From the NCBI GenBank assembly GCA_010015585.1, contig ML975149.1: a stretch of 64,000 nt of DNA, one strand, 5' to 3'. The stretch's first letter is position 1. Each line of letters starts with the position of its first letter. The position numbers and the translations under genes are program-made. This document shows, piece by piece, positions 3,967-55,365 of this stretch. Origin of the DNA: Eremomyces bilateralis CBS 781.70 (taxonomy: Eukaryota). The notes beneath the pieces were generated by a model that saw nothing but the letters and a program-made list of their open reading frames with translations, ran no database searches and was not told where the DNA came from.

Positions 3967-5750
3967 TCATGACACCCCCTCCTCCTTCATATCTCCCAGC
4001 ACTGGCGACGACTTATCGTTCCCCTTCCGATCATACCCCGGATGTTTACTCTTCATATGTTTCGATAGATTCGATGACTGCCATCAAGTTAGCCATCATT
4101 CTTCCGTTGATTTGATCCCTCCGAAAAACTTACATCCCCACTCCGATGCCCACACACCCGACACACAAACGGCTTCTCCTTCGTATGCGTCCGCTCATGA
4201 TTCTTCTGCTGCGTCGCCGTCGCGCTCCGCTGCCCGCACCAGCCGCACACATACGGCTTCTCCTTCGTGTGCGTCGTATAGTGGTTCTTCAACTGCTCCT
4301 TGGTGCCGTGCGCCTTGCCGCACAGGTCGCAGACGTGCTCGCAGAAGCCGGAGTGCACGAGCAGGTGGCGGTTGAGCTTGCCGCGCTGGCGGAAGTCGCG
4401 GCCGCAGAAGCGGTCGCAGTGCAGGCGTTGGCAGTGGTAGGTGCCGGAGAGGAGGGCGGTGTGGGCGCGTTCGAAGTGGTGTTGGAGGGCGGAGGCGGTG
4501 GGGAAGGTGAGGGGGCAGCAGGTGGTGGGGTCGGTGGGGTCGGTGACCCAGTTGCATTGGTAGAGTTCGGTGGGAGGGATGGGGTCGGTTGCGGAGGTGG
4601 AGGTGGTGAGGGGGGGTGTGGGGAGGTTTGAGGTTGATATCACATGGGGCGATGCCTCGATGGTTGTGTTTGGTTGGGACTTGATTGGACTGGTCCCTGG
4701 AATTTCGGTCCTTTGTTCTCGCAGGCTCGTTAACGGCGGTTGGAGATTGGTTCCTTGTTGCAGACGAGACAAATCCAGCCCGAATGGATCGGACCGTAGA
4801 ACCGAATACTCTTGTTCTTGAAACGGCAGAGACCCCTGTTCAGTATGCGGTCTTGATACCGGCGAGTTGAAGCAGGTATGGTGGCCATGCCGTGTCCGGC
4901 CATCGTCGCCCATCAATGTGCCAGGAAATTGCGAGGATATCTGATTCGCAATGGACGTCTGGGCCAGCGTGTGGAAGTGAGGCCAGGACGGATGCCCATC
5001 GTGCGCCTCCTGGCACAGCTCCAACCCACTCCCGCTCCACCACTGCTGCCCATTTTGCAACTGCCCTGCCAACAGGCACTGCCAGTCGTCACACTCCGTG
5101 ACATCGCCATCCATCTCCGGTTCGTCGGGCGGGTACATCGGCCCCACGTCTCCGGGATACGAATGGAGACACCCCTCCTCGAAGCAGGGCGACTGATAGA
5201 GCCCCCCGTCGAAGCAGTTGCTGTCCGTACACGGCTGCGAGCAATCACATCCATCGCAGGGGATCTCCCCGCACCTGTCGTTCAGACCGTCTGCGCAGCC
5301 GGCGTCGACGCAGGTGGGGAGCGCGCAGTAGCCGGGGATTCCGCAGGCGTCGTCCTCGGACGTGCAGGCGATGGGGCAGGGCTCCTCGCAAGGGGAGGGA
5401 GGGCGGAGGAAGGATGTGTCGAAGGCGGTGGTGAAGTCGTGGAGGGCGAAGCATGGTGGGCCTTTGGGCGGATGAGGGGGAGAGGACGGGAGGGGTTGGG
5501 GATTGTGTGACGGCGTTGGGTCGTCGCGGGACGCCGACGGGGTGGACGGGAGGCTTGGGAAGGTGGTATGAGGTGCTTGATGTTGACAAGGCGGGTGTTG
5601 GTGAGGATTACTGTGTCGCTGAAACCTGTGCGAGGTGGGGGAGATGGTAGGACGATACGATAGGGCGTTGGTCGCAATATCGGGAGAGCGCCGCCGCTTT
5701 CGTCCGATGTTTGATTGCATCGTGTCGAACTGGAATTGCTCGAGCCTCAT
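3967..5750 (-). CDS. C2H2 zinc-finger transcription factor, Zap1/ZafA-like zinc-responsive activator
   Basis: Exons 5750-4134 and 4077-3967. The N-terminal region is Cys/Asp-rich (CEEPCPIAC..., CDGCDCSQPCTDSNC). Five C-terminal C2H2 fingers, the last two linkers of HTKEKP type, end in DSSNLSKH as in Zap1. The C2H2 call is firm; orthology is less certain. Confidence 0.75.
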
Positions 5751-6357
5751 AGATTCGATATTGGGCTTTTAGATAGGACGGTCTTCATCAATTCCATCTA
5801 TCTGTTGTCAGTGGTACAGTTGTGACTTGTCGGGAGTGGTGTAGCGATGAAGACGAGACTCCCACTTACCCATCAAGGTACTGATGACACCAGAGGCCCA
5901 CCAACGACTCTCCCCGAGATTGATGCCTTGAAGCAGTGATGAATTGATCTACTCCTGAGCCTCTTCAGCCGTGATCGCATTGTCAACTATAATCCGACCC
6001 CGATGGATTCTTGCGATGCTCATGGCTTGGAGGGACAATTGTTGGAATGGCGCTGGCAGATGATGAAAGACGTCTGCAGAGGAGGCGCAGATTCTGGCCA
6101 ATCAGAGGAGCCGTAGCTTGGATTGGATATCCGGAGCGACGACGACAAATCCACCACCGCGCGTCCTTCATCCGTATCTTCCACCAACCTATGTTCTCTA
6201 CCGCTTCAATTGCCTCAAGGTTCATAATCCCTATACCCAATCCCTAGAAATAATCCCTAGAAACAATCCCTATAAACAGCCTCTAAACCCCTCTCCCCCA
6301 GAATCCCCCCTCCAACCCCACCTCTACCTCCCTATACCTCTCACCACCATAACAACC

Positions 6358-6974
6358 ATGGGCAACTGCTTCGGCAAGCCCTCCACCAAATCCTCCCCCT
6401 TCCAAGGCTCTGCTCGCACCGTCGGCAGCGCCAACCCCCCCGCCCGCCCCGCCCAAGGCAGCAGCACCGCCACCAACCCCCAGAAAGCAGCGCCGCCGAT
6501 CAAGCCGGAGACCGGACGGACGTTGGGGGGCGGGACGAGGGACGTGGAGGATCCGAAGGCCGCGGCGGCAAGAGCGGCAGAGGTAGGTGTTTTTTCGTTT
6601 GCGTTGGTTTGTGAGGCTGGGTTGGGGAGAGGGTCATGTGTTGTGTATAGTGCGGTGCAGTGCAGTACAGTCGCATGGCTGGCTGAATCGGAGCCCAGGC
6701 TCATCGGCCCATGACCACGACCGTGTGGCTCTGATCCACCTCCCACCCTACCACCACCCTTTCTCCCGCCCAACCCACCGAAGTGCGTATCCGAACCCAT
6801 CTAACCCCCGCATCACAGAGCCGCGCGCAGAAACCCACGCCGTCGAACAAGCTCGCACTGCAGCTCAAGACACAGCAGAATCGGACGAGGACGGAGATAT
6901 TGAAGGAGGCGAGCGAGGAGAATCAGCGGCAGAAGGAGGTGGATGCGGGGGCGACTGTGAGGAGGTGGGATTGA
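6358..6974 (+). CDS. Small N-acylated protein (MGNCFGK...), SVIP-like
   Basis: Exons 6358-6582 and 6819-6974 (GTAGGT...CTAAC...CAG). It has an MGxC myristoylation/palmitoylation signature, a GRTLGG motif, and KAAAARAAESR across the splice junction. Confidence 0.75.
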
Positions 6975-7996
6975 TGGAAGGACTGAGGTTGGGGGGTTGA
7001 GTAAATGGAATTGGGGCGGATGAGGGGGGAGGGGGAAGGCGGCGGGTTACGACGTGATGATTTATGAGCGGATGGGATGCGTGGCTTATGAAGATAGTGG
7101 GATCCGATGGTGGATTGATGGACCAATGTGTATGGATTGCATAGATGCGGATCGCGAGATTCGCCAGCTGGAAGGTTGGAGGGAGTGGGATTCAAAACAT
7201 CGGGCAGGATGAAATACACTATTCCTACACCATCAATCATCAGAATCACGAAGACATCACACCTAAGAATTCAAGTCATGTATGCCATTGTTCCTATCCA
7301 TCCGTGTACACTACATACACATGGACGCCCATCCGTTTTTGAAATGATGCCTCATCACCCTCCTCCACGAAATAGACATCGCACCATTTTTATTGCCACC
7401 TCACTAGCCCCAGCCGTTGTGTACTTTTGCCCATATGTCTGCTGGAATGAGTTCGCGCGTCCAACGTAGCCAAGAGAAATGATGCCGATGACGATCCGGA
7501 ATCCATACGCTATTTTTCGCACTCCACGGGACTTCCGCCATCGCGCACGGAAAGACATGCGAGCGGATCGGGGCTAGTAATGCAGGATGCTAGTGAGGAA
7601 AGGATGAGATGGGGCGGATAGGATAACCGTGAAGAGCACCGCAGCGCGAGGGACAGAGGGGGAATGAAACAGCCTAATAAGAATATACCCAAACATTGGA
7701 ATCTAACGCCGTGGGCCCGAGAAGAAATTCGCGATGATCAAGGAAGCAACCAATGTGTGATGTTGCTCGGAAGGTGAGGACCCATCCATCATTCAGTCGT
7801 GAGAAGAGAAGAATTAGTGCGAGTGGGAGGAAGGGAGGACGCATCGCTAAACAGGGAAGCTCGGGGAAACGATGATTGTGCTGCGCTGAGGAAAAGCAAA
7901 TCTCGAGAGCTGAGCGATGATGTACAGCCGCCCAATTAAAGAGTCGGAACCGCGGGGTCGACGCTTTCGATAGGACACTCGGTGAGGTGTGCGTGG

Positions 7997-9665
7997 TTAT
8001 GAGCTCAGGGAGCTATGCTTCCTAGGAGCGGCCCTCAACGCCGATGATGACTCGTACGTTGAGGGAGCCTCCATGCCAAAGTAGTCGTGATAATACTTCT
8101 TGGTCCATTGGCGAAGGACGATAGAAGCTTGGAAGAGTCAGCGATGATTCTATGATGCACGGGGAGATTGCAATACCTTTCAAGAACTTCTTGCTGGCGT
8201 ACTTCTTGAAGAACGCTTCATGAAGGACCGGACCATGCAGATAGTCGACCATGAGCTGGAAGCACGGCCACAGTTCTTCCTCGGTGTAGCCGGAGTAGTG
8301 GGCGAGGGTGGGGTCCCACTCGCCCTTCTCCAGGACCAGACGAGCGAAATACATCGCTGCGGCGGCGACCTGGCTGGGCGGGTGGCCGATGAAGTGGTGG
8401 TCCAAGCAGCTGATCTCGAGCAAGTACTTGCCGAGGGTACGGGTCTGGATGTCGTAGGCATCGGCCTTGGAGATGCGACGCAGGAAGTTCATCGGGTTGG
8501 GATAGCTGAGGTCGTAGTTGAGGGCAGCTAGGACGAAACGCTCCGCACTGAGGATCTCCTCCTCGGTGAATCCGTCATCGGCGACGTGGCGGAAATTTTG
8601 GACGTGAGGTGATAGGACCTCTTCGTACTTGGAGGCGATGAACATGGCGGTGACGCCGACGAGTTGGAGGCGGTCGAGCTGGACGATCTTGCAGGAGAGG
8701 AAACGGTCGATGATGTTCACAGCTAGGAAGAGGGTTTCAGGAAGGAGACGGAAGCGACCATGAACCTCCAGCAGCCAGTCAACGAGAATGCCACGCATCT
8801 TCCATTCGAGTTCCGTTTGGAGGTCCATGTAGTCCTCGCTGGCCATAGTCCTGCCCTCGATATCGAGCAGGTAATCAAAGATCTCATTGACGTATTCGGC
8901 AACCATCAGAGGATCTTCAATGTCCTCGAGATCGAGGTCGACGACTTCCGGGTTAATCAGCTTGGGAGTGGTGGATCGAGGTTGGAACTGAGCCTCCTCC
9001 TTCGGAGCAACCGCCTCATGCTTCGTCTTGACTTCCATATAGACGTTGGTGTTTTCCGCTGGTGCAACATTCTCCTGGGTCTCAACGCTCTCCTCTTCCT
9101 CAATGGACTTCGAAGTGGAGTTCGTGTTTCGCTTCTTCGAGGCAGGGCCGTGAACCCCCGACCCACTCGCCGGTCGCTTCAAGTCCGAGGCATTCTTGTC
9201 CTTGTTCCCAAGAACGTTTCGCGTCGACTGGGAACGAGAAACCTTCTGAACCTTGGTAGGTGCGGCGGCTTTGACGAGACCCGGCTTGGCCCCAGCTTTA
9301 CCATTCTTCTCCGTGACCGTGCCTTGCTTCACGACATTGCTGACATCTCCGAGGGCTGCACGTTTCCGGGACTGACCCGCGGTGGTGGAAGTGGTGGTCG
9401 ACTTGGTTCGGGTGAGAGGCTTCTTGACTAGATCGGATGCAGCACTTTCGTGGTTCAGAGCGGCGGCCTTGGCACGCGTCAAACGTGTAGTGCCGGCATT
9501 CTCGTCGTTTTCAATGCCCTGAGCCCGTGATCGAACAGCTCGACCCTGGTGATGGTCAATTTACACGTCACAAGGGGATATCTCATCGAACGGGTTGACG
9601 TGTTGAATAGTCGAAGACGACGTTGACGGTGATATCAAGCAAGAGGAACTTACAGCAGGAGGCAT
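7997..9665 (-). CDS. nimE: G2/mitotic B-type cyclin
   Basis: Exons 9665-9654, 9545-8177, 8127-7997. Destruction box RAALGDVSN; cyclin box MRGILVDWL...LQLVGVTAMFIASKYEE; FFKKYASKKF. Confidence 0.95.
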
Positions 9666-10403
9666 GATGAGTTCGTCAAGCCTCTAGAATGCTAGAGGAG
9701 TGGACACGGAGGAATTGGAACCGTGTATATCGCGGTTTATGCACGATATCAAGGTTGTTGTGGTATATGTTTTGATGGATGCGTGAGCTGGGAATGAAGT
9801 TAGAGATTGCTGTCCAGCGAGGTCTTATGGATCCATCTTAACGTACGGATAACTGGGCAACTGCACTGGGCAGGTGAAGTAGATGCTTGGGTATGATGAC
9901 AGGTAAAGATACCCAGCACTGGTACCCGATACACGATGTTGATTGACGAGATTCCGACCGAATCAAGGCAGGAGAAAGAACGTGACGGAACCTGGAATAG
10001 ACTCTGTACACGCGAGAGGGTGAGATGGAGACGGCGTACAGGAGGAAGAGAAACAGGATAGACGGAAAATAGAGGAAGGCGTGTTTGGGGGACGAAAAGG
10101 AACTCTGTTGTGAGGAGCAAATACACGATGGTTGATGTAGAAAGCAGCAGAGACGTTCACTCACGGGTTTGTTGTTGCCCCAGCGGGTTACATAAGCAGA
10201 GGATCCCGGTCAGTTGGGCGTGTCTTCGCGCCCGCTTGGACCACCACGCAAGGCCCCGCGCAACGACCGTGATATACCGCGATTAGGACTGTTTGAAGGG
10301 CTGGAGACGCTGAAAATGTTGGGAATTGTTGGGAGATAGTCGTGGAAGAGGTATAAGAGATAGAATTGTGATATCAACATTCTTTGGACGAGAAAACCAG
10401 AAA

Positions 10404-10420
10404 ACGCGTGAAAAACAAGT
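10404..10420. promoter_or_regulatory. Candidate MCB element (ACGCGT) with an adjacent forkhead-like AAACAA in the cyclin B / RML2 divergent promoter
   Basis: Sequence AAAACGCGTGAAAAACAAG. This is a short motif that fits cell-cycle regulation but could occur by chance. Confidence 0.3.
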
Positions 10421-10689
10421 CACGGGATCGCGTTCTTCTGGTGGACGGCCAACCAGGCAACGCTTTCGTCATGGCAACCAATCAGGACGCGACGCAATAG
10501 AGTGGGTCGGCCGAGTGTACTCATATTAGCCTTAGCGCCTCAGACATTAATAATTGCTGCCTCAGGCATCCTTGACATTTTCTTGAAGCTCAATTGAAGA
10601 CTGAACATGTTGGATACAGCTTCGTACATCACAGCATCAATTCCTCCCATTAGCCACGCCGGCATCTGTGATGTGATACAGGAGTGGCG

Positions 10690-12001
10690 ATGATCCAAAC
10701 AAGGCCGTTCTTACGGTCAATATGGCAATCCAGCCAACGCCGTACCACCCTCCGTAACCCACGCCTCTACTCCACCGTCACCATCGAAGTCACATCCCCT
10801 TCCCAACCCCCAACCATCACCCTCACCCCCAAATACCCTCCCACCCCTCCCACCGCCTCCGCCTCCAACTCCGAGACCGCCCGCCGCGTCGCCCTCAAAA
10901 AAGGCGGCGCCGCCGCCATCCTCCGCACCTACACACCGCGCACCCCCGGCATCCGCCATCTCCGCCGCCCCGTCAACGACCACCTCTGGAAAGGCCGCCC
11001 CTACTACCCCCTTACCGTCCCGAAGAAGGGCCACGGCAAAGGCGGCCGCAACAACACCGGCCACGTCACCGTGCGCCATCGCGGCGGCGGCCACAAGCGC
11101 CGCATCCGCCTCCTCGACTTCAAGCGCATGGACGCCGGCCCGCGCCTCGTCGAGCGCATCGAGTACGACCCGAACCGTAGTGCGCACATTGCGCTGCTCA
11201 GCCAAGAGGCGGACGAGGGGAAGAAGGCATTCAGCTACGTCATCGCGGCGGAGGGCATGCGCGCCGGCGACGTGGTGGAGAGCTTCCGGGCGGGAATCCC
11301 GCAGCGGCTGATCGACGAAATGGGCGGGGTGGCGGACCCGGGGATGCTGGCGGCGAAGACAGCGATCCGCGGGAACTGCCTGCCGATGCACCTGGTGCCG
11401 GTGGGGACGAAGGTGTACTGCGTAGGGTCGGCGGCAGATCGGGGCGCGGTGTTTTGTAGGAGCGCGGGGACGTATGCGACGGTGATTGCGAAGGGGGAGG
11501 AGGGGACGAAGGAGGAGAGGACGGTGGTGGTGAGGTTGCAGTCGGGAGAGGTGAGGAGGGTGAGTCGGAATGCATGCGCGACCATCGGGGTGTCGAGTAA
11601 TCCGCATTGGCATTTCAGGCAGTTGGGGAAGGCAGGGAGAGCGCGATGGTTGGGAATTCGGCCGACGGTCAGAGGTGTTGCGATGAACGCTGGTATGTCA
11701 TATCGTCTCTTCGTCTCATCAGATCCTTCCGATCACTTTGTCTCGATTGAGGTATACTGATTGTTTACATAGCCGATCATCCTCACGGTGGTGGTCGTGG
11801 CAAGTCGAAGGGTAACAAGATTCCCACGAGTCCATGGGGTCAACAGGTACGTGTCAATCCCGTCTACTTTCCCATCCACATTCTCACCGTCTACAGGCCA
11901 AATCCGGATTCAAGACTCGCAAGAAGCGAAACGTCAACAAGTGGGTCGTCCATGCTCGGCATCGGAACCAAGGCAAGCGACGGGCCAAGTCCGCATCATA
12001 A
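10690..12001 (+). CDS. RML2: Mitochondrial large-subunit ribosomal protein uL2m
   Basis: Exons 10690-11692, 11773-11846, 11897-12001. Arg/Ser-rich presequence; GRNNTGHVTVRHRGGGHKR, IEYDPNRSAHIAL and RPTVRGVAMNAADHPHGGG. Confidence 0.96.
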
Positions 12002-13510
12002 GGATTGGATCTCCGTGCACTTCCTGGTGTTGGCTTTCGTATCATGGGCGTCGAATATCTACCTTGTACTTAGCGACCCTCGCATCTTGTCGAACTAGAA
12101 GCGTGCTGTACAATAGTCAAAGGCATCAAGCCTGCGGTTGAATGCTGCGTGTACATTAGAATGAGGAATTGGCATATCAATCAAACCAGCACAACTTTGG
12201 CATGTAACAAGCATTCAAAGGACCAACGTCATCGCTGCCGCCTCCCTCGGTATACTTATTCACTGATACTGCAATGGCATAACACAAACGTGGCTTCAAC
12301 ATCACGACCCAATCAACCACTCAGCAGAATATAAAACTATGCCGATCGAGCCAATAGGATTTACTAATGGTACTGCCACACCACCCAACATCTGGACTCT
12401 TAAGTCTCTTACAAAGCAGCAATGTGACGACTCCCAGCCCCCTGTGATGGACGCACCTGGACACCGAATACGATGCCATCGCGGCGTGTCGGCGGACGTT
12501 GGATGTCCTGGTCCGGTTGCTCCGCCACAAAGAATGCACTCCAAATGCATGTGCAAACTCAATATGTGCTCCTGCTCGAGTGATAATATTTGGAGTTCGG
12601 AATTCGGAATTCAGATTGAGGACCGACCATGGACACAGTCAGCACCGTTTCAACCCCTTTTCCAACCGGGTAATACAGACACAACTCCGAGCCTCAAATG
12701 CCAGCATGGAGACCATTGGCAGCGCGGAATTCATCGATGCATTTCTCATTATTTGGATTATTAAGATGCGGCCCTTGTCATAATAGCGCTCGGCAACGCC
12801 GGCGATCATCAGCTTGGCTTCAGCCCTGCTATCGGTGGTCCAACCATAACACCGACCTCCTGGCCGTACCGCCTGCGAGGATGCAGGTAGTGAGCCTGTG
12901 TGTCACAGAAGGATGCACAGAGATGTTTTAAGATATTGAGGATCTGAGAGGGGGTCTACTCGATAGGGATGAAAATGCAATCCTAGAAATGGAGGTGAAA
13001 TTGCGCTTGCGTGTGACGTTGCGCGTTCATATCGAATTGCGACCCGTTGACGACGCCTCTTGGTGTTTGCCTGGAGTCCTGGACTTAATCGCTGCGTTGG
13101 GCCGGAGATCTCGTATTCTTCCAGTTCAGTGGTGGAATCTCGCCAATCCTGTCTCTAAGTTTAAAGTTACCCTCCCGTTCTCCCATCGTTCTTCTAACTT
13201 GTTCCGCGGCTTTCTAAGCATTTTGGCCCAACGTCGGTACAGTACTGCAGTTTCATCCACCTTGCGCTCTACGCCCACTTCTGCGTCGTGACGACACGCT
13301 TGATTTTAATATTCTGCCTTTCAACCACTGGGAGTCATTTCATAGTGGTTAAATAATCCAGCGGTGCGAATGTAAATACACGATTCCGTTCATCTCGCAG
13401 GAAAGGGTCCAAATCCCCACATCCTGTCCATTCAGCTGCTTGGGTCCGTATCCCATGGTACACCAGGCACCAACACTCCCCCAGACCCTTTCCACCTCCA
13501 AACCAAGGAC

Positions 13511-16500
13511 ATGCTTCCCGTCCACACCATGCCGCCTATTGCCCCCTCCTCCGACGACTTCTTCAACGACGCCTCGCGCCCCCTCCCCAGCGAGATCCCC
13601 AACGACGTGGACGCGCACCCGGACGCCTCGAATGTCCCAAAGACGAAGCGCATCGCGTGCGTGCTGTGTCGGAAGCGGAAGCTGCGCTGCGATGGGACAA
13701 GGCCGGCGTGCGCGACGTGTACGCGGCTGAACCATGAGTGCACGTATGATGAGGTGCGGAAGAAGAGTGGGCCGAAGAGAGGGTATGTGAAGCATTTGGA
13801 GGCGCGGTTGGCGAGGTTAGGTGAGTGAAGATGTTCTTCTAGTTTGGGTGCCATGGCTATGTATGGTTGTGATACGTTGTGTTGTGGTGCCGTGCCCAGT
13901 GGGTTTGTTGGGGAAGTTGGATGAGGGCCAGGATCGCTGACTTGAGATCGGTGGATAGAACAGGCGGAGAATATCGTCAAGGCGAGAGAAGCTGAGCCAC
14001 CTACGAGGATTGTTCCCGATGCGCGGAATACGAGTTACGGTCTCGGGGCCACCGGCTCGGAGGGACTGAACGTCTCGATGGGAGGGACGGAGTCAATATT
14101 GAACGGCACGAGCGCCATCGCTCCAGATGGCTTCGGTCTCAACCCAACGACACCTAATACTACGAACGACAACGAACCGCTGTCCTGGGAGATGATCGGC
14201 CTGGGGTTGGAAGAGCCGCTTCCGAGTCAGGAGATCATTAACGAATTGTAGGTTGCTTTCATAACTGAAGGGGCGCTTGGATGACTGACGTCGTCTAGAC
14301 ATCAGATGTACTTCGAGAAAGTCCACCCGTCGATGCCAATGATCCATCGTCCCCGCTACTTCGCCGCCATGAACCTCGCTCCGAATATGCGACCGCCCAT
14401 CGCCCTCCGCTATATGATCTGGTGCTCCGCGGCCACCATCACCGACCGCTTCGAGTCGCTCCACGAGCACTTTTACTTTCGTGCGCGGAAATACTTGCAG
14501 CTGGATGAGATGAAAGGCCACGGGGAGAACATCATCACCGTGGCGCACTGCCAGGCGTGGATCCTGGTGTCAGCGTATGAGTTCCGGCATATGTATTTTC
14601 CGCGCGCCTGGCTGAGCGTGGGACGTGCGACGCGGTTGGCGCAGATGATGGGGCTGCATCGGTTGGATGGACAGGGGCTGGACGTCAAGCAGTGCATTTC
14701 GCCGCCGAAAGATTGGGTGGAGCGGGAGGAGCGGAGACGGACATTCTGGATGGCATATTGTAATGACCGATATGCTAGTATTGGGACCGGGTGGCCGATG
14801 CAGATCGAGGAGGCGGATGTAAGTCGTGCCCAACTGTCCCATTGTGTCTCCGCTAACAGATGGTAGATCATGAGCAATCTTCCCGGGGCGGACGAGGCGT
14901 ATCACTGCAGTAAACCTGGACTAACCTGCTCACTCGAAGAAGTCTTCGAACCCGGCGGTGCATCCAACCTCTCCTCGTTCGGCGGCATCGTCGTGATGGC
15001 CTGCCTCCTCGGCCGCAATCTCACCCACCTCCACCGCCCTAGCCCCGCCGACGCCGCCGATGACCTCAACGGCGAGTTCTGGACCCGCCATCGCAAGATG
15101 GAATCCCTCCTCTCCACCACCGCCCTCAACCTCCCCGACCACCTCCGCCTGCCTGCCGGCCTCGGCGAACCGAATGTCATCTTCCTGAACATGAACATCC
15201 ACACCAGCGTCATCTGCCTGCACCAGGCCGCCATCTTCAAGGCGGACAAGCACCGCCTATCCTCTAACATCAGCTCCGAGAGCCGCGTGCGCTGCGTCAC
15301 CGCCGCCGCGGAGATCGCCCGCATCATGCGCATGCTGACCCATCTTGATCTTTCTACTGTAAGACCTGAAAATGGTGTGCGGTCCGTTCGACCAAGTTCG
15401 CTGGAACTGACACTCAACAAGACGAACCCGTTCAGCTCCTTCAGCATCTACGTCGCGAGCCGTGTGTTCGTGCAGTATTTGAAGTTCCGCCCCAAGGACC
15501 AGCCCATGGTGGCGAATCTGCAGTTCTTGCTCGAGGCGATGCACGCGCTGAAGAAGCGGAATCCGCTCACCGAGTCGTTCTTGGTCCAGTTGAACGTGGA
15601 TCTCGAGGGCGCGAATATCCCGATCCAGCGACCGACTGTCAATCGCAATGGGTCCAACCCAGTCGTACGTCTCATTTGTTCATATCTGTATTCCAAACTA
15701 ACCCACTCCTCCAGCCCGGCGAAATCCCTACCAACACCGACGCCCTAAAATGCAGCCCGATCTTCGAACTCCGCGAATCCCAATCCGATTCCGCCCCCAT
15801 CAACACCTTCACCCGCCCCACTCCCCTCCCCTCCACCTCCCNNNNNNNNNNNNNNNNNNNNNNNNNNNNNNNNNNNNNNNNNNNNNNNNNNNNNNNNNNN
15901 NNNNNNNCCGCTCCCGCCCCTCCCCCCGCGCCCAACCCGGCCTCCCCCCGGGCACCTTCTCCATCGGCCGCACCCCCTCCATGGGCCACGTCTCCTCCCT
16001 CTCCCCCCCCTCCGACCTCGACATGGGCGTCGGCGCTTCCCCCACCTCCGCCACCGCCGACCCCACTCCCGACGCTGATCGCCCCACCCCGGATTCCACC
16101 GGCCGCGGCAGCGTCTCCGGTGGCTCGGGCGCCGCGCTCACCGGGTCGTCCCACCGCGGCAGCTCGAGCAACACGAGCTTCAGCCCGGGGGACAACACGT
16201 CGGGCGCGTCTTCGAGCAGGACGGGCCCGCTAGGCCTGCATGGGGATTTCGGGTTCGCGGGGTGGAATCTAGGGAACGGCGCCGCGATGGCGCCGGGGGG
16301 CGGGGCAACGATGGGGGTGGGGGCGATGGGGGCGATGGGGGGGCCGGCGACGACGGCGGGGCAGGGCGGGATGGATGCGAGTGCGGGGTATGCGGATTTC
16401 GGGGACTGGAGTATGGGGGGGATGGGGATGGGGATGGGAGCGGGGACGGGGATGACGCCGGGGCCGACGGGGATGACACCGGCGAATGGGGAGTGGGCGA

Positions 16501-16535
16501 TGATGGACGATTTGCATTGGCCGGCGAATGGGTGA
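13511..16535 (+). CDS. Zn(II)2Cys6 transcription factor with fungal TF middle-homology domain
   Basis: ACVLCRKRKLRCDGTRPACATCTRLNHEC; YFEKVHPSMPMIH; EREERRRTFW. About six exons (13511-13820, 13959-14247, 14299-14818, 14867-15358, 15422-15665, ~15715-16535). The last exon spans an N gap and the start codon is uncertain. Confidence 0.9.
15842..15907. other. Assembly gap (66 N) inside a C-rich tract
   Basis: Run of N flanked by poly-C-rich sequence. Confidence 0.99.
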
Positions 16536-20130: not shown

Positions 20131-20479
20131 CAGAGCAGTGCCCTATCGGCGAGAGATGGCGGTCTATCGAAACGAAGGTTGCGCGGGTCGGATGGAGAGA
20201 TGGATCGTGGTGACCGGTGGGTTAGAGTAGTGATGGGGGAACTAGGAGTGGATCGCGGTCGGGCTGACCGGCACAGCCTTTTCCAAGTGAATATCGATCC
20301 GTCAAGCAGCGAAGCGCAGCATGGGTCATATATCGACGGTTCGAGAGTCGAGAGTCGGTGGGATATGTGTGATGGGTATCAAGAATGTGTGTAAGAGAGA
20401 GGAAGGGAGGAGGCGTCGGAGGGAGAAGTGGGTGAAGGTGAAGAGGAACAATGAGGTGAAACAGTGAAACTGATTGTGG

Positions 20480-47318: not shown

Positions 47319-47870
47319 GGACGTCAGAGAGCCTTAGATTGGGTAAGGATACTCTATCGTGTGCGAGCGAGACGGTTTGCGACAGCGTCGTTTGACAAGT
47401 TGTCTTGTAGGTTGTTGCTGGAATAAAATTGTTGGGCAAAAAGTTTTGCCGCGCCGTGGGATGTTTGGCAGCTGGAAGCGTGGCGGGTCGGAGGCGCCGG
47501 AGCCGCAGCGACGGGGGCGGCGAGGGGCACTACGGGTGGCTTGCTGGAGGGGCTCCCGTTCATCTAGCAGGCAATAAAATGCACCATGAAAGTATAAATT
47601 AAGATATTAAGGTACTTGGAAGGTCAAGACTGAGAGATTTTAACCAGATGCTATCCATGATAGTTCATATGTTGGAACCGCCCGGTTTCTAGAATGGATT
47701 CAGGATGGATGCTACATCTCCAAACAAATATTCTAGTGATCGGACTGATCCAGGAATTGAATGAACAGTGGATGCGAAGCCCATGAATTCTATGCATCTA
47801 GACTCAATTCTAGAATGATGGTATAAGACCAGGATAGACACCTCCCAGGTATCGTCATCCATCAGCTCCC

Positions 47871-49438
47871 TTATGCAGCATCTTCCTCATACCCCTCCGT
47901 CTTGATATCATTCAACCCCAACTCCTCCAACTCCTGCTCCGTCCGCTCATAATCCTCCAACGTAATCTGCTCGTCCGGCTCCGGCGCCTTAAAGCTCTGC
48001 ACATAACTACTCGCCAACGGATCCTCCAACACCACCGTGAACTTCACAGCGCCGTTGATCGCCCCATCCAACCGCCCGAAGAACGACGCCCACCGCGCCT
48101 TCTCCGTCGACGGCATGCTGTCCCCCGCGTTCGCGTCGCCGATGTCAAACACCGACGAGCGGAGGTCGTCGCGCACTTGCGTCAACAGCCCTTCGATCGT
48201 CGTGAACCGTCCGCCCATCGTCCCCGGCTCGACGCTCAGTTCGAGTTCCGGGCATGATAGGGCGCAGGACTCAGATTTGAGGATATCGCGGGAAAGGTCT
48301 TCGGCGTTCTGGACGGAGACGGTGATGCGGCGGCCTTTGTCGGGGACCGCGCCGCCGGTCTTGACTTCGTTGCTGCGATCTAGGGACGGTGAGAGGGGGG
48401 AAACGGGGAAGGGTTAAGCAAAACTTACATCCGCAATCCTCGCAGACGGTGCTCATGAGCACGACTTGTTTGAAGTGAGGGATGTTGACCATCTTCATGT
48501 TCGTCGCGCAAGGGCGCGTGCAGCCGGGACAGGTAGCGGGGAAAGAGTACACCTGGTTCTCCACGATATCGTCCTCCGCATCAACATTCGTCGTCCCCGT
48601 CTCCGCTGGCATGCTCGGGTACATCTGTCTTGGATGATACTCCGGGCGCATCTGCACCCCATTTGTCTCCTCTTGTGCGCCCTCTTCCGCGCCCTCTTCC
48701 GCGCCCTCTTCCGCGCCCCCGGACAATCCGAGCGCCGTATTCTGTTCGGCAGTCCGAACATACTCATGCTTGCTCCATTTCCCTGATATGTCCTGCGGTG
48801 ATGGCTCGATCCACGAGTTTCCTGCGGGGTCATCGAGGACGAGGACAAACGGCAACTTCTCCGCCTTGGACATGCTGTAGAGCGTGTCGATGACCGATTG
48901 AACCTTCTCGTACATCTCGGCCGCCACCTCTTTTCGCTCCGGTTGCTTCAACTCCAGGTCCTGTGCAACCATGACCAAGATGCCCTCGACGTTGGTCATC
49001 TGGCCTCGCCCCGGGGGGATTTCTAGATCGGCTCCCTCGATGCGCACGGTACAAGTGTCGCTCTTGACGATTTGTCGGCCGAGGTCAGCGGATGACTGTA
49101 TATTGAATCGGTGGCGAGCGCCTTTTGCATGGATTTCGCCGGCGGGCTGAACTTCAGAGTTTTTGAGGCCGCATGATGGACATTCGAAGGACATGATGAC
49201 GATCTCGCGGAAGTATGGTATTCTGGTGAGGAGGAGTCGTGTGGTGCCCTGGAAATCTGTTAATACAGCCAAAACAATTAGGATATTTGATGCCACTTAC
49301 ATCTTCATGACAATTCATGCATAGACTGGAAATCTCCTCCACGACTCGCTGGTCGTCCGCATCTCCCGCGGTGTCCGCGACTTGTGCGCCGATATTCTCG
49401 AAAAGCTTGGGATCCTTGCGCTCTGCTTGATCCGCCAT
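47871..49438 (-). CDS. ZPR1: Zinc finger protein Zpr1 (eEF1A chaperone)
   Basis: Exons 49438-49301, 49248-48429, 48379-47871. Two modules (SLCMNC...IPYFREIVIMSFECPSC; CPGC...IPHFKQV...CEDC); DDPAGNS and EDPLASS. Confidence 0.95.
48676..48718. repeat. 12-bp coding tandem repeat encoding (GAEE)n in the ZPR1 linker
   Basis: Unit GCGCCCTCTTCC x ~3; protein GGAEEGAEEGAEEGAQEE. Confidence 0.85.
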
Positions 49439-50730: not shown

Positions 50731-53215
50731 ATGGACCCAAAGTCAGCGAACCCCGAGTCCGATCAGGCGACCAAACTCGCATCGCAAGCCATCGATCTTG
50801 CGAAGGCCGGGAAGACAAATGATGCATTTCGACAGCTTGAAGAGGCCAGCAAGCTTTCTCCCGAAAATGAGAAGGTCAAATCCACACGGGAAGAGCTGAG
50901 AAGATATCAGGATGGGAGCCGGCTGGTCGATCTATGCAACGAGTGGCTCGAATCCTTGAGTGACGATGATGGCGAAGAAGCCCTCGACTACCTCCACAAA
51001 CACAAGCTATCCGACCCTATTGCCGATGAAGCGATGAATATCCTCCTGGAATACAAATCCGACTGTGACATGGCGGATCAGCTCACCGGCGAGGTCCTGA
51101 AGCATCCTGGCGCGAGAAGGGCACTGGCGGCTGCGCTCGTAGCCCACCCGACCGCTACATTCAAGAAGATGTTCGTTCGTGGTGAAGACACTATGGACGC
51201 CATGATGGCAGCCCTCAGGCTTGAATCGGAATGGAAAGACGATACTGCACGCGTTGCAGCGATTCGGGACGCGTTTCAGCTGGCCCTTGCGAGTCTGATG
51301 GAAGCCGGTGTGGACTATCCCGACCGCGCAATGAAGCTGATTGCCAACCTCTTGTCCTACGAAGCTCACCATCTCCATGGTCTGATCGATGCCGATGGAT
51401 TCGACGTCATCCTCTCCGCATTGGATATTCGGCTGCCCACGAGGATCAAGAAGTACGCGACCCTCGCGACCGCGAAGTTGCTGGAATCGTCGCCGGATTC
51501 GGCGAAGGTCTTGATTTCCAACTATGTGACTTGGAGAGTTCGAAAACCCACCGCCGACGGATTGATCGTCGCGTTTTCCGCCGCTGCCGCGGTGTTTCCG
51601 ATGGAGCCGACCAATGCGGCAGCACTCTTTCTCGCGGACGGGTTTTTACCCGCGTTCGTGCACATCGTGCAAGAGAAGCGGAGCAACCGAGTGGAACAGG
51701 CAGCACTGGACCTCCTCAGTGTTGCATGCATGGACAAAGGTTGCCGTGAGGGCATCGCGAAATATTGCAAGCTCTGGTTATGGGAGGTGGTAGAAGCGAA
51801 CGTGGACGCGCGGCGGTCGAACCTGGCAGCGTTGATTCTTGTGAAGATCGCCAACGAGTCCTCGCTGAAGAGCGGAGGGGAGTTGGACGACCTCATCAAA
51901 AAATTCAAAGCCACGATTGTGTCACCGGATCAGCCGGGCGTCGTAGATGCCATCGAAGCCCTTGCATTCGCATCGCTGAACCCACAAGTCAAAGAGGATC
52001 TAACCAACGACAAGGAGTTCCTGAAGATGCTGATTGCGAAACTTGGCGGACCCGGCCAGGGGATCAAACCCGCTCATTTTGGCGGCGTATCGATCTTGGA
52101 AAACATCACGGCCTATCCCCCTCCGCTGACCGAAGAGCAAAAGAAGATCTCCGAGCTCAAAGCGTATGCCAACAGCTCCAAGCCGACCGAAGCCAGCCCA
52201 CTCGAGTCCAATGAAAAGGTTACGGTCCGATGTCGAACGGTGCTCGATGCCGAAGCCGTTCCCCTCCTCAACACCATCAGCAAAGGCGCCTCTCCCGCCG
52301 TCCTCCTCCGCATCACCAAAATCTTCCTCTCCCTCAGCAAAGAGCAGCGACACCGCGGCGTGCTCGCCCAGCAAGGCGCCGTCAAGCAACTCCTCACCAT
52401 CCACGCCACTATCACCGCAGCACAGCGCGCCAAATCCCCCCCATCCACCACCAACCCCCACGACATCCTTCACACCGCCGCGCACGCCGTCGCCCGCATC
52501 CTCATCTCCGTCGACCCCCACCACGTCTTCTCTACCACCCTCCCCCTCCCCNNNNNNNNNNNNNNNNNNNNNNNNNNNNNNNNNNNNNNNNNNNNNNNNN
52601 NNNNNNNNNNNNNNNNNNNNNNNNNNNNNNNNNNNNNNNNNNNNNNNNNNNNNNNNNNNNNNNNNNNNNNNNNNNNNNNNNNNNNNNNNNNNNNNNNNNN
52701 NNNNNNNNNNNNNCTTCCCCCAGATCGACCCCCTCCTCCTCTTCAACCCCCAACCCCTCCTCGTCCGCGCCGCCACCGAGCTCGTCTGCAACCTCATGGC
52801 CTCCTCCGTCGGCGTTGCCCTCTTCGTCGACGACTCTCGCGACGCCCGCACCCGCCTGCGGGTCATCATTGCCCTCACCGACGCCGACGACCTCCCCACC
52901 CGGATGGCCGCCGGCGGCGCCCTCGCCATGATAACCGAGTGGGAGCCCGGCGTCGAGGCCGTGCTGGAGCAGGAGAACGGCGTGCGCCGCATCGTGGGCA
53001 TGTGCGGCGATGAGAGCGAGGAGGTGGGCATCCGCGGGTTGGCGTGCGTGGGAAATTTGGCGCAGGCGCCGGGGGCGATGGGGGAGCGGGGGAGGAAGCG
53101 ATTGATGGAGGAGAAGGCGCTGGAGGCGGTGCAGGGGATTGAGAAGGAGGGGAGGGGGAAGGATGTGGGGATGGTGGATCTTGCGAGGCAGATTGCGGAG
53201 ATTATGAAGGAGTGA
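50731..53215 (+). CDS. SHE4: UCS-domain myosin chaperone (She4/Rng3/CRO1)
   Basis: EALAFASL, LTEEQKKISELKAYAN, HRGVLAQQGAV, LVRAATELVCNL, AAGGALAMIT. The frame changes across the N gap. Confidence 0.92.
52552..52713. other. Assembly gap (162 N) inside a C-rich tract of SHE4
   Basis: Run of N flanked by poly-C-rich sequence. Confidence 0.99.
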
Positions 53216-53493
53216 GGGGGGATTTGGGAGGATAATGGATGATCGGCATGATTTGATGGATAGATGCGGCTGAATTAAAAGCTCCGTGTAGGTATATTAC
53301 GCTGTTATGCTATGACTTCCATGCCATGACTTCCGTTGCTATTAGTTGTAAACTGTCCCTATTGATTTCCTCCGTCCAAGCCGCTAGATACGCCCTTCGC
53401 TCATGCAAGTGATATAAACCCAATAAATCACCGAATCCACTGACTTATGAAATCCGAGATCCCGCCTTAGCCACTCTTTCGACTGGCGTTACT

Positions 53494-55365
53494 CTACTTC
53501 CTTCCCAAGTCGGCACTGCTCCGTTTCTTAAAGCTCTCTCTCGTATTCACTCGGTCAATATCAAACGGGCTCTCGTCATACTCCCCCAAACCCTCCCCTC
53601 TCGTCCCCGTCCTGATGCTCTCGACGCGGGGTTGCCGCTCTTGAACTTCTCCCTCCTCCGCACCCTGCACCGGCGCCTCTTCCTCCATCTTCTCCATATC
53701 CCTTTCCTTCGACGCCACCCGCGCCGGGGTCTCCGCACGCTCCACATCCCTCTCCTCCTCCGTCTCAAACTCCCCCTCCTCCGGCGGCGTTTCGTCGCCC
53801 CGCAACCGGCTCATGAACGCATCCGACTCCGCCGAATACTTACACCGCTTCCGAATCCCGGCGCCGTATTTATAGAATAGAAATGGAAACGGCACGCACG
53901 CGAGCGCCAGGAACGCTGGGATCGAGCTCGCCCAATGGATGCCCAGACTCCGATACATATACGACGTGAACAGCGGGAACGCGGCACCGAAGCACGACCG
54001 CAGCACCGACGACGCGGCCAGCACGCTCGCGGCGAAGATAGTGTACGCGTCAATGAGGTAGTTCATCGTCCCGAGGAAAATCAGCACCATGCCGAACCCG
54101 AACGGGATGCCGGCGGCGACGCTTGCGGGCCACGGGATGGCCGGGTCGTTTGTCCAGGCGAACCAGAAGAGGCCGATGGGGAGGACGACGCCGCCGACGA
54201 TTAGCATGGGGATGCGGGCCTCGGGAGGCGCGAAGCCGCCGTTCTTTTGGACGGCTTTCATGTAGTGCGGGTCGCCGATGAAGATGACGTAGGCGACGGC
54301 GAAGAGCATGCCGATAGCGACACCGAGGAAGGGGAGGCCGCCGATGCCTTCGGACCAGCCGCGGCCTTGCTGGTAGACGATAGGGTAGGCGCCGAAGAGC
54401 ATGTAGAGGGTACCGTAGATGATGGCCATGTAGGTAGAGAGGATGAAGACGATGGGTTCGCGGATGAGGAGGATCCACGGGCGGGAGAGCGCCGTGATGT
54501 ACAATTCTTTGACGGACGTCTTGCCTGTGTCCTTCTGGAGTTTGGAGACGTACACCTTGCCCGTGAGCTTCGACAGCGCCTCCGCACGCTTGCGGAGAAG
54601 CACGGGGGTGTACGTCTCAGGCACGAGGACCATGCCCACGATCCACAACGTCCCACTAACCGCCGCCAGCAACCCTTCCACCCACCTCCACCCCGCCGCG
54701 TGCCCGAGAAACCCCCCGGCAATCGGTCCCAACACCGGTCCCATGAACGGCGCGGCGCTGAAAATCGCCATCGCGAGCCCCCGCTCGTTCGCCGGGAACA
54801 TATCCGCAATGACGCCTCCCGCGTTCGTGAGCGGGCTACTCCCGAACGCGCCCGCCCAGAACCGCAGGATGATCAACGTCCAGATGTTCTGGCTCCCTGC
54901 CGCCGCCGCATTGAACGCCGTGTACGCGGCGAACGTGCCCGCGAACAGGACCTGGCGGCCGTACATCTCGCTCAGTGGCGCCCAGAAGAGCGGGCCGATG
55001 GCGAAGCCCATGACGAACAGCGAGAGGCCCAGGGTCGCGACGATCTGCGAGCACTGGAATTCGGCGATGATCTGCCGGATCCCGCCGCTGTAGGCGGACG
55101 AGCAGAAGGCGACGGTCAAGGTCGCGCCGGCCATGCCCATGGCGTAGGTCCATTTAGTGGCCGTTTTCCAGGTCATCGGGTTGCGGGCGTCGGCGTCGAG
55201 CCAGCTGACGATGTAAGGGTCGGATTCGGTCCCGCTGCCGGGCCATTCGTGATCGATGACATCGGGGGTGAGGACGCTTTGGTCGCGGATCAGACGCCAA
55301 TGGGGGATGCTGGTAGGAGAGTGTGGTTTCGAGTCCTTGGAGGACTCTGGGTTTGGCGCCTCCAT
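53494..55365 (-). CDS. MFS drug:H+ antiporter (DHA1 family)
   Basis: NPMTWK, GPLFWAPLSEMYGR, GGVIADMF...ERG, GPVLGPIAGG, PETY, PPEAR, YLIDAY. About 12 hydrophobic helices; intronless. Confidence 0.95.
   Translation of the reverse strand: MEAPNPESSKDSKPHSPTSIPHWRLIRDQSVLTPDVIDHEWPGSGTESDPYIVSWLDADARNPMTWKTATKWTYAMGMAGATLTVAFCSSAYSGGIRQIIAEFQCSQIVATLGLSLFVMGFAIGPLFWAPLSEMYGRQVLFAGTFAAYTAFNAAAAGSQNIWTLIILRFWAGAFGSSPLTNAGGVIADMFPANERGLAMAIFSAAPFMGPVLGPIAGGFLGHAAGWRWVEGLLAAVSGTLWIVGMVLVPETYTPVLLRKRAEALSKLTGKVYVSKLQKDTGKTSVKELYITALSRPWILLIREPIVFILSTYMAIIYGTLYMLFGAYPIVYQQGRGWSEGIGGLPFLGVAIGMLFAVAYVIFIGDPHYMKAVQKNGGFAPPEARIPMLIVGGVVLPIGLFWFAWTNDPAIPWPASVAAGIPFGFGMVLIFLGTMNYLIDAYTIFAASVLAASSVLRSCFGAAFPLFTSYMYRSLGIHWASSIPAFLALACVPFPFLFYKYGAGIRKRCKYSAESDAFMSRLRGDETPPEEGEFETEEERDVERAETPARVASKERDMEKMEEEAPVQGAEEGEVQERQPRVESIRTGTRGEGLGEYDESPFDIDRVNTRESFKKRSSADLGRK

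Follow-up and report, generated by a model that had tools for sequence, protein, structure and literature searches.

The 64,000-nucleotide window analysed here, from contig ML975149.1 of Eremomyces bilateralis CBS 781.70, holds genes in which C-rich stretches give way to G-rich ones in blocks (C arm, then G arm). A 3-state HMM segmentation of this one 64-kb window, to which the entire analysis refers, was the source of the C arms, G arms and neutral state listed below.

1-680: gene truncated by the window start; C arm 1-205, G arm 206-680 in the HMM
4117-4678 (-): 3' part of a C2H2 zinc-finger gene; C arm 4117-4324, G arm 4325-4678
4995-5690 (-): second block of the same C2H2 exon (4134-5797), beyond a neutral 316-bp linker (4679-4994); C arm 4995-5300, G arm 5301-5690
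6151-6693 (+): orf6067, from the 5' UTR through exon 1 into the first half of intron 6581-6816
6694-7189 (+): orf6067, second half of the same intron, exon 2 and 3' flank
10730-11693 (+): fills exon 1 of the mitochondrial ribosomal protein L2 gene; flip at about 11205, end at intron 11692-11771
13409-14092 (+): Zn2Cys6 transcription factor gene, exon 1, intron 1 and part of exon 2
14610-15344 (+): Zn2Cys6 gene; G arm 14610-14819 stops at intron 14819-14866, C arm 15000-15344 lies in exon 4, and beyond intron 15359-15421 exon 5 is weakly G-rich
15693-16618 (+): probable last exon of the Zn2Cys6 gene (from 15715); N gap at about 15850-15950
17059-17517: HIT gene, exon 1 (ATG 17079) and the first part of intron 17387-17626, an intron assigned from splice signals
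17518-18065: HIT gene, second part of the intron, exon 2 and 130 nt of 3' flank
19881-21748: divergent pair; G arm 19881-20458 at the Rox3 5' end (-), a 105-bp AT-rich spacer, then Rad10 (+) with C arm 20564-21020, neutral middle and G arm 21315-21748
27114-28125 (-): whole luciferase-domain gene and about 120 nt of 5' flank; flip at 27617
29270-31853 (+): LINE-like retroelement ORFs without a block, an internal negative control
33282-34197 (+): histidine-phosphatase gene and 200 nt of 3' flank
34383-34906 (+): orf34420; a single codon phase shifts from 0.88 C to 0.91 G
35711-36042 and 36501-36961 (orf36178, +): two smaller blocks
39194-39730 (+): 3' end of the aldehyde dehydrogenase (ALDH) gene; weaker C3 excess from about 800 bp upstream
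40085-41233 (-): orf40226 and 3' flank
47839-48413 (-): last exon of the ZPR1 gene
52256-53269 (+): final kb of the UNC45-like gene, whose left 3.8 kb are neutral; N gap at about 52580-52740
53570-55400 (-): MFS transporter, a single ORF with two cycles; C arm 53570-53865 and G arm 54104-54499, then C arm 54630-54865 and a weakly G-rich part
59951-61013 (-): weak, gapped block, inositol polyphosphate kinase (KCS1-like) gene

Within the 64 kb the HMM passed directly from C to G 20 times and from G to C three times (two-sided binomial, about 5e-4), and neutral-to-C transitions (22) likewise outnumbered the three from G to C. The arms cover 17,079 bases in total. On 10 shuffles within 2-kb blocks the same model gave no C-to-G transition and a mean of 594 arm bases; shuffles within 1-kb blocks gave at most two such transitions. 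Arms are about 270-320 bp long and units 0.4-1 kb, C and G exchanging places on a high-GC background while A and T hold steady. Over 200-bp windows the extremes of skew are -0.735 (17001-17200) and +0.738 (17801-18000), and strongly skewed windows have a GC content of 0.6-0.75. A single codon phase carries 70-88% C on the left of a block and 70-91% G on the right. C3/G3 clustering exceeds that of 1000 synonymous-position shuffles in 27 of 30 coding segments (p<0.01); the 5'-to-3' slope is positive at p<0.01 in 18 of the 30 and negative in two, the cyclin gene and the UNC45 part cut at the N gap. Polarity is invariant, with the G-rich strand directed 5' to 3' away from the unit middle in every case. 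The mirrored C-to-G blocks are thus confirmed as a real feature of this DNA.

An earlier note, made from the letters alone, had listed 17 such blocks, and each of the 17, paired by eye with the HMM table, proved to be a C arm followed by a G arm: 15 with a direct flip and two with a neutral spacer (20564-21020/21315-21748 and 53570-53865/54104-54499). Its list did not include the blocks at 1-680, 4995-5690, 35711-36042 and 36501-36961, or the weak one at 59951-61013. The note had also described a signal that sits at synonymous sites, is its own reverse complement and looks alike in + and - genes, and all of this holds. The 2OG oxygenase gene, KCS1 and a 930-aa ORF, said largely to lack the skew, fit that description only in part, since they have it in weaker form; such weaker versions occur at 2840-3337 (z=10), in KCS1 (z=4.9) and in the DUF7905 gene (z=5.1), where a C-to-G cycle occupies the last third.

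That assembly or sequencing error produced the blocks is a reading to which we give practically no credence. Both N gaps fall in C-rich arms, and the contig of a DNA run, probably of the source sample, is 26 letters shorter at 15882, within the first gap. Against this, that contig and one from an RNA-like run of a second study list no other differing letters over 4000-23999, and reading frames and conserved domains are intact.

The skew is strongest at 4-fold sites, where C and G shares are 0.72 and 0.09 in C arms and 0.12 and 0.70 in G arms (skews of about -0.78 and +0.71), and codon position 3 dominates over the other positions. The same trend is seen at two-fold sites, codon positions 1-2, introns and UTRs. 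From C arm to G arm, position 1 changes from C 0.34 to 0.18 and from G 0.26 to 0.42, with A and T constant, and AT skew is near zero throughout the blocks. At two-fold sites in G arms, R-sites are G at 0.85 and Y-sites C at 0.46, the opposite holding in C arms. The skew persists outside coding sequence, where arms reach -0.50/+0.51, as against -0.44/+0.46 in coding parts. It is negative in the 100 nt upstream of the ATG in 13 of 15 genes and positive in the first 100 nt 3' of the stop in 12 of 15. Two long introns contain a G-to-C junction at their middle: the halves of intron 6581-6816 have skews of +0.50 and -0.54, and those of intron 17387-17626 have G55/C23 and C55/G7. Neighbour effects at 4-fold sites are weak and mirror-image between C and G arms.

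These observations bear on the level at which the pattern arises. Because non-coding arms are as skewed as coding ones, junctions lie mid-intron and neighbour effects are weak, the pattern appears to belong to the DNA rather than to codons. The earlier note had suggested a bidirectional mutation or repair footprint centred on candidate fixed sites (recombination hotspots, origins or chromatin units); a regional, DNA-level mutation or repair footprint fits better than codon selection, since introns and UTRs carry the skew. Its two other suggestions are not supported. Long-range C:G fold-back would affect whole-CDS folding energy, which does not differ from that of synonymous shuffles in six of six genes (z -2.2 to +1.9). 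For paired G4/i-motif tracts, the 17 and 12 G4 motifs in the arms compare with 21.9±3.7 and 16.4±3.4 in mononucleotide shuffles, with no enrichment beyond composition. We infer that selection on codons, mRNA fold-back or G-quadruplexes is not the cause.

The blocks go with genes: coding-like segments occupy 52% of the window and contain 83% of arm bases, and of the arm bases outside them 94% are no more than 300 bp from such a segment. The long UNC45, ALDH and DUF7905 genes carry a full block at the 3' end and are neutral on the left; in UNC45 and ALDH the C arms begin mid-gene with no G arm on their left. A gene may hold up to four cycles (the Zn2Cys6 gene), and a single exon two (C2H2, MFS). 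Each of the three types of intergenic region has G-to-C junctions in its low-GC spacers, and the two introns have them as well. The LINE-like insert has no block. A motif scan of the flips returned no convincing candidate, only the CG-rich words expected from codon structure.

The earlier note knew of no described system for such a pattern, but its generic form has been published as a gene-position gradient. In about 64 fungi, coding strands show a bias to C where genes begin and to G where they end, a pattern whose cause its authors report as unknown; the gradient affects 4-fold sites and amino-acid use, reaches promoters and 3' UTRs, leaves A and T nearly constant with flat AT skew, and correlates weakly with expression (R about 0.07-0.10) (McLean and Tirosh, 2011; PMC3315797). 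The present blocks share the C start and G end, the 4-fold and amino-acid effects, the inclusion of flanks and the flat AT skew, and it is this agreement of 4-fold, position-1, flank and AT skews that identifies the two patterns with each other. They differ in several respects. The published pattern is one three-part gradient per gene, averaged over genomes, whereas here there are 0.4-1 kb blocks, up to four per gene, with single-gene amplitudes near saturation at 4-fold sites and beyond those published. Degenerate and non-degenerate sites are about equally affected there, whereas position 3 dominates here. GC skew is negatively related to GC content there, whereas here absolute skew increases with GC4 (rho 0.32), a different measure.

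Other described asymmetries are more distant. A peak of C over G marks plant and some fungal transcription start sites (Fujimori et al., 2005; PMC555766), and the C excess of the RNA-like strand at gene starts, including the pre-ATG skew above, resembles it; that peak is confined to about ±100 bp around the start site, whereas our C arms, placed relative to ATG positions rather than mapped start sites, extend over about 300 bp of coding sequence and have G arms as partners. In grass genes, GC3 class and place along the gene likewise influence whether C or G is used at position 3 (Tatarinova et al., 2010; PMC2895627), with a reported CG3 skew of about 0.05-0.1, as against about 0.7 here.

We put at roughly 0.55 the probability that the blocks represent the published fungal GC-skew gradient in an extreme and repeated form, and are caused by a strand-asymmetric bias in substitution or repair that acts on the DNA and is tied to transcription units. 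In the version we prefer, an R-loop-type zone would leave one strand exposed as single-stranded DNA near the far end of a transcript, for sense and convergent antisense transcripts alike (antisense and internal transcripts being assumed), and C and A on the exposed strand would change to G. Each transcript would then become G-rich at its end and, by mirror image, C-rich at its start; long genes would show a full 3'-terminal block, and internal start sites would give a gene several. The 3'-end blocks with neutral left sides in UNC45, ALDH and DUF7905 fit such far-end anchoring better than a spread from gene borders. Deamination of exposed C predicts extra T in G arms; with T at only 0.08 of 4-fold sites there and AT skew flat, C>G and A>G changes would have to dominate. 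The two cycles in single exons and the four in the Zn2Cys6 gene mean that the far-end model needs several internal transcription units, and the weak published correlation with expression also counts against it.

Recombination-based versions are close rivals of the far-end transcript model. GC content peaks at the flip (0.67-0.69, vs. 0.60 in outer arms), which is more directly explained by a hotspot centred there. We regard as possible, if fairly unlikely, that the blocks mark exon-centred meiotic hotspots with the break at the flip and strand-polar biased gene conversion. Resection polarity would set the invading strand on each side, and G.G and G.T mismatches would be corrected to the donor more often than C.C and A.C, leaving C on the left and G on the right, as ordinary GC-biased conversion lifted central GC. 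In favour of this, blocks are tied to no particular place in a gene, some lying in the 3' kb of long genes and some as a pair in one exon, and the model predicts GC skew without AT skew and the direction seen at two-fold sites. In classic yeast genetics C.C mismatches are very poorly repaired, and a C:G ratio of about 8:1 that far exceeds the GC rise (0.71 to 0.82) is in keeping with this; a limited literature search on C.C mismatches gave nothing usable. Budding yeast breaks, however, occur in promoters rather than exons, Candida albicans has no regular meiosis, and no motif was found at the flips beyond the CG-rich words. The strong gradient in C. albicans (PMC3315797) thus counts against hotspots. 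In Zymoseptoria, 1435 of 2578 inferred hotspots lie in exons, with the lowest rate in introns, yet GC-biased conversion is very weak or absent (PMC5844332).

Breaks could instead lie at block borders (promoters, terminators, long introns), after which resected single-stranded stretches would be filled in with errors: C>G and A>G on the 3'-tailed strand would leave G on the left of a break and C on the right, and a gene between two break sites would read C then G. We think this unlikely. Strand-asymmetric mutagenesis of this kind is described at human meiotic break hotspots (Hinch et al., 2023; PMC7615360). To the left of the break it is the forward strand that is single-stranded and that carries C>N and A>N changes, with G>N and T>N on the right, and C>G and A>G are maximal 700-800 bp off-centre. 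The mirrored polarity and the change types (C>G and A>G among the main ones) match those proposed here, the mirror-image asymmetry having a 1-2 kb scale, and that polarity would set breaks at the borders, not the flips; those data are de novo mutations, whereas ours are standing composition. The G-to-C junctions in low-GC spacers and long introns agree with border breaks, and the changes proposed would raise both GC and skew. A symmetric process, however, predicts both arms, yet the UNC45 and ALDH C arms have no G arm on the left (22 neutral-to-C vs. three G-to-C transitions); skew and GC are maximal away from borders, in an alignment biased by HMM edge placement; and the expected A/T asymmetry is not found at 4-fold sites.

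Selection on the transcript or on transcription has in its favour that local 100-nt folding is 12-34% weaker than in synonymous shuffles in six of six genes (z +3.0 to +8.1), and selection against local RNA structure may act. Separating C from G would prevent local structure in GC3-rich RNA or in the exposed DNA strand; alternatively, 3' C-avoidance would tune RNA polymerase speed under CTP scarcity, an adaptive idea already published (PMC3315797). As an account of the blocks we nevertheless place little weight on it. Any separation of C and G automatically weakens local folding, and the order of internal blocks would be left unfixed, yet it is 20 to 3. Full-strength arms occur in introns that are spliced out, a single 5'-slow/3'-fast ramp is incompatible with genes that hold several cycles, and near-saturation at 4-fold sites would demand strong selection per site.

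Replication origins at the flips, from which leading strands would carry excess G in both directions as they do from bacterial origins, are very unlikely. The left-to-right polarity agrees, but 20 flips in 64 kb amount to about one per 3 kb, and known fungal origins are spaced far more widely. The arms are only about 300 bp long, and blocks are restricted to genes. GGN-rich, GC-skewed origins have been proposed inside plant genes (bioRxiv 10.1101/2024.01.04.574144).

At 24 orthologous loci of other fungi, such blocks were found in only two and none equalled the amplitude seen here. Relative to the text of McLean and Tirosh (PMC3315797), this window adds to the fungal gradient a near-saturated amplitude, a coupling to GC-rich patches, and multiple cycles per gene, two of them in one exon.

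The alternation of C-rich and G-rich sequence along the Eremomyces bilateralis window is real and striking. Within each block, which runs left to right from a C-rich arm to a G-rich arm through an internal switch (the flip), GC skew per 200-bp window changes from about -0.6/-0.7 to +0.6/+0.7 at a G+C of 0.6-0.75, and in one codon phase the share of C is 70-88% to the left and that of G 70-91% to the right. A three-state HMM assigned 17,079 of the 64,000 bases to skewed arms and made 20 direct C-to-G transitions vs. three in the opposite direction (two-sided binomial p ~5e-4); passages from the neutral state led to C 22 times vs. seven times to G, and returns to it came from G 23 times vs. six times from C. 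Applied to ten sequences shuffled within 2-kb blocks, the same HMM made no C-to-G transition and assigned 594 bases to arms on average. The segmentation recovers every one of the 17 blocks in the earlier note, a neutral spacer separating the arms in two, and adds several more, some lying outside 4000-55200.

The pattern follows genes. Gene-oriented profiles (per 25 codons) show C at codon position 3 (C3) early and G (G3) late on either strand, bearing out the earlier description of blocks that look the same in + and - genes. When synonymous codons were permuted inside each gene 1000 times, C3 and G3 were clustered beyond the shuffles in 27/30 coding segments (p<0.01), and the 5'-to-3' slope of G3-C3 was positive in 18/30 (p<0.01) and negative in 2/30. 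Of all arm bases, 83% fall in coding-like segments, which occupy 52% of the window, and for 94% of the remainder the nearest such segment is no more than 300 bp away.

The window (64 kb, 228 N) has a G+C content of 54.7%, and its genes are of ordinary filamentous-ascomycete types according to Pfam: C2H2 and Zn2Cys6 transcription factors, a cyclin, mitochondrial ribosomal protein L2 (closest named homologues 60-75% identical), HIT, Rox3, Rad10, a luciferase-domain protein, a histidine phosphatase, an aldehyde dehydrogenase (ALDH), a DEAH helicase, ZPR1, UNC45, an MFS transporter, and an inositol polyphosphate kinase, plus a LINE-like retroelement. Fifteen introns within 4000-23999 were taken from RNA-like contigs, and gene models elsewhere are ORF-based. 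These contigs come from run X3, which is tentatively taken as RNA and whose contigs skip GT..AG introns. Over 4000-23999 the DNA-run contigs and the RNA-like contigs, the latter from a second study, carry no listed letter differences from the window, and the skew pattern is therefore present in both genome and transcripts; an assembly or sequencing artefact is an unlikely source of the blocks. The segment called orf15965 probably represents the final exon of the Zn2Cys6 gene, read on the + strand. Because third positions coincide on both strands, this does not affect the counts, but it voids one row of the 3'-flank data. Other features of the window are as follows.

29270-31853, + strand: LINE-like retroelement, two adjoining ORFs with an endonuclease/reverse-transcriptase-type domain; A3 0.33-0.34, strongly positive + strand AT skew, no C/G block.
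About 15850-15950 and 52580-52740: N gaps, both within C-rich arms.
20459-20563: AT-rich 105-bp spacer (GC 0.38) separating Rox3 from the divergently oriented Rad10, abutted by arms on both sides; likely a bidirectional promoter core.
55800-57200: stretch of GC 0.34-0.45 without long ORFs, between the MFS and KCS1-like genes.

At 15882 the DNA-run contig is shorter than the window by 26 letters; the skew-bearing codon phase changes across each N gap, which means that the number of N in either gap is arbitrary.

The C-then-G unit corresponds neither to the gene nor to the exon, and the number of cycles differs among both.

C2H2 exon, 4134-5797: two full cycles with a 316-bp neutral linker between them.
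MFS gene, single ORF: two cycles.
Zn2Cys6 gene, six exons: about four cycles, one spanning an intron.
HIT, orf6067, and ZPR1: one cycle per exon.

The exon as the unit is ruled out by the two cycles each in the C2H2 and MFS exons and by Zn2Cys6 exons 4 and 5, which share one cycle across their intron. In the long genes UNC45, ALDH, and DUF7905, a full C-then-G block occupies the last kilobase and the remainder is nearly neutral. Junctions at which the G-rich end of one unit meets the C-rich start of the next occur in intergenic spacers of all three arrangements (divergent, tandem, and convergent), mid-position in both long introns, at or beside at least four short introns, and twice within exons. 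The two long introns accordingly reverse the order of a block, with skew of +0.50 in the first half and -0.54 in the second at 6581-6816, and G55/C23 followed by C55/G7 in the HIT intron at 17387-17626.

The median arm is 270 bp long on the C side and 320 bp on the G side. Outside the arms G+C is 0.52; it climbs to about 0.60 in their outer parts and peaks at the flip (0.67-0.69), and AT skew stays within about +-0.1 across blocks; because the alignment was built on HMM edges, the sharpness of its steps is not informative. For site classes, each codon was assigned to a zone by the 4-fold skew of its neighbours, its own site excluded.

Base frequencies by site class in C zones and G zones
4-fold sites: C zones, C 0.72, G 0.09, A 0.09, T 0.10; G zones, G 0.70, C 0.12, A 0.11, T 0.08.
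2-fold pyrimidine sites: C zones, C 0.82; G zones, C 0.46.
2-fold purine sites: C zones, G 0.45; G zones, G 0.85.
Codon position 1: C zones, C 0.34, G 0.26; G zones, C 0.18, G 0.42.

Codon position 3 dominates the signal, and positions 1 and 2 move the same way as the 4-fold sites. Since A and T are unchanged at position 1, the effect amounts to C and G trading places, with the minor strong base avoided, rather than to a simple transition bias. The skew extends at full strength beyond coding sequence, with values of -0.50/+0.51 in non-coding parts of arms (AT skew +0.02/-0.05) vs. -0.44/+0.46 in coding parts. The earlier note's placing of the signal at synonymous sites is borne out, most strongly at 4-fold sites. 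The 100 nt preceding the ATG are C-skewed in 13/15 genes, and the first 100 nt past the stop are G-skewed in 12/15 (>+0.3 in 7/15), one of the 15 models probably being on the wrong strand. Absolute 4-fold skew is correlated with GC4 (Spearman 0.32, 346 windows), indicating a coupling to GC-rich patches, and neighbour effects at 4-fold sites are mirror-symmetric between arms.

The earlier note had raised selection for long-range fold-back in mRNA and for paired G4/i-motif tracts, and neither is supported. Whole-CDS folding energy matched that of synonymous shuffles (25 for each gene) in 6/6 genes (z -2.2 to +1.9), and global mRNA fold-back as the driver is rejected. A long inverted repeat or fold-back element is likewise rejected, as the arms of the four blocks tested matched over just 15-34 nt at 74-93%. 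Relative to synonymous shuffles, predicted pairs become longer-range and local 100-nt folding is weaker (z +3.0 to +8.1). Weaker local folding could be read as the object of selection; however, it must follow from the separation of C and G, and such selection would leave nothing to set the C-then-G order of internal blocks and would not account for full-strength arms in introns that are spliced out. G4 motifs number 29 in arms vs. two in 46.9 kb of neutral DNA, but do not exceed mononucleotide shuffles of the arms; with GG/CC neighbours slightly disfavoured at 4-fold sites, G4 or i-motif selection is rejected. A cause in CpG deamination or methylation is unsupported, since CpG observed/expected is 1.19 in arms, with no depletion. 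No convincing motif was found at flips, where just CGACG/GACGA-type words exceeded mononucleotide shuffles, a control that leaves codon structure uncontrolled; such words are expected because C-ending codons precede G-starting codons. Amino-acid polarisation with 119 L2 homologues showed little change in the conserved core, the shift being confined to the poorly aligned N-terminus.

The earlier note knew of no described system that would explain the blocks, yet a generic C-to-G gradient of fungal genes is already in print. McLean and Tirosh (2011; PMC3315797) reported that in about 64 fungi, many of them filamentous ascomycetes, coding strands favour C at the 5' ends of genes and G at the 3' ends, with the bias present at 4-fold sites and in amino-acid use, reaching into promoters and 3' UTRs, and with A and T barely changing. 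They proposed two causes, mutation regimes that differ by transcription phase and C-avoidance under CTP scarcity. For plants and some fungi, Fujimori et al. (2005; PMC555766) described a peak of C over G at start sites. The window resembles the McLean-Tirosh gradient in the direction of its coding segments, C over G at the 5' end and G over C at the 3' end (positive slope 18/30, negative 2/30), in skew at 4-fold sites and at the amino-acid-changing positions 1 and 2, in its reach into 5' (13/15) and 3' (12/15) flanks, and in roughly constant A and T with flat AT skew. As a generic gene-position gradient, and only as such, the pattern is therefore already reported. Unlike the published gradient, which consists of a single 5' ramp, a plateau, and a 3' ramp per gene, the window has several cycles per gene. 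Four features go beyond the published text: single genes reach near-saturated amplitude, the units are discrete, mirror-symmetric, and several to a gene, position 3 dominates, and skew is coupled to GC-rich patches. A literature search outside subscription journals found no later or fuller description than PMC3315797 and PMC555766, and turned up just three later papers citing the former. Thus, across the one 64-kb window analyzed, the blocks are an extreme, modular variant of the published fungal pattern and not a new kind of element.

The amplitude was compared at the L2 locus, where third-position skew in the window is -0.71 and then +0.49, values approached by none of 24 eukaryote-type orthologous L2 loci from metagenomes. 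The same HMM found direct C-to-G blocks in only two of the 24, whose L2 proteins are 60-64% identical to that of the window and whose flips occupy a different position in L2.

Metagenome contig L009, 1462-2530 and 3026-3954: C-then-G blocks.
Metagenome contig L010, 1316-1944: C-then-G block.
Metagenome contig L016, 1-1711: 1.1-kb G-rich then 0.6-kb C-rich stretch, the reverse order; probably a two-gene junction.

Judged from these sequences, the amplitude is lineage-specific. The comparable measure in grasses, CG3 skew, is about 0.05-0.1 (PMC2895627).

Fixed polarity, equal strength in coding and non-coding sequence, and mirrored neighbour effects point to a strand-asymmetric process at the DNA level, rather than to codon or protein selection. 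We favour a process linked to transcription, in which the displaced strand would be exposed near the ends of sense and convergent antisense transcripts and C and A on the exposed strand would change to G, so that each transcript would end G-rich and its mirror image would give a C-rich start. Such a process would account for the full 3'-end blocks of long genes and for the tie to genes, but it requires hypothetical antisense or internal transcripts and, taken alone, leaves the GC peak at the flip unaccounted for.

That peak (0.67-0.69) is expected if exon-centred recombination hotspots place a break at the flip and a hierarchy of mismatch correction in heteroduplex DNA, with G.G and G.T corrected and C.C and A.C escaping, yields strand-polar biased conversion that swaps C and G on opposite sides. 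Although we consider this improbable, it also predicts the right sign, the lack of AT skew, the behaviour of 2-fold sites, and a skew far exceeding the rise in GC, and, if true, it would explain the 5'-C/3'-G gradient of fungal genes. A literature search found no description of biased conversion between two strong bases. A precedent comes from Zymoseptoria, where 1435/2578 hotspots are exonic, but the same paper also finds GC-biased conversion to be very weak (PMC5844332). Breaks might instead lie at block borders and be followed by resection and error-prone filling, a process documented in humans with matching polarity and types of change (PMC7615360); mid-gene C arms that lack a G arm on their left fit this poorly. 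Replication origins at flips are an unlikely reading; they would produce the observed C-to-G polarity, but jumps number 20 in 64 kb, where a spacing of tens of kilobases would be expected, and arms are about 300 bp long.

Because third positions in blocks are nearly all C or G, long antisense frames stay open within them, sometimes sharing third positions with the real gene, and could mislead gene callers.

10717-11697, - strand: long antisense ORF.
15809-16651, - strand: long antisense ORF.
27037-27717, + strand: long antisense ORF.
52000-53274, - strand: long antisense ORF.

The force behind the skew is strong enough to alter protein make-up, with Pro/Thr/Ser/Leu codons toward the 5' end and Gly/Glu/Val/Arg codons toward the 3' end. 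The 5'-C/3'-G skew of fungal genes has been in print since 2011 without an accepted cause. Because the effect in this window is near saturation and split into discrete mirror-symmetric units, competing causes, including transcription phases, R-loops, break resection, heteroduplex repair, and RNA-level selection, become testable at single loci.
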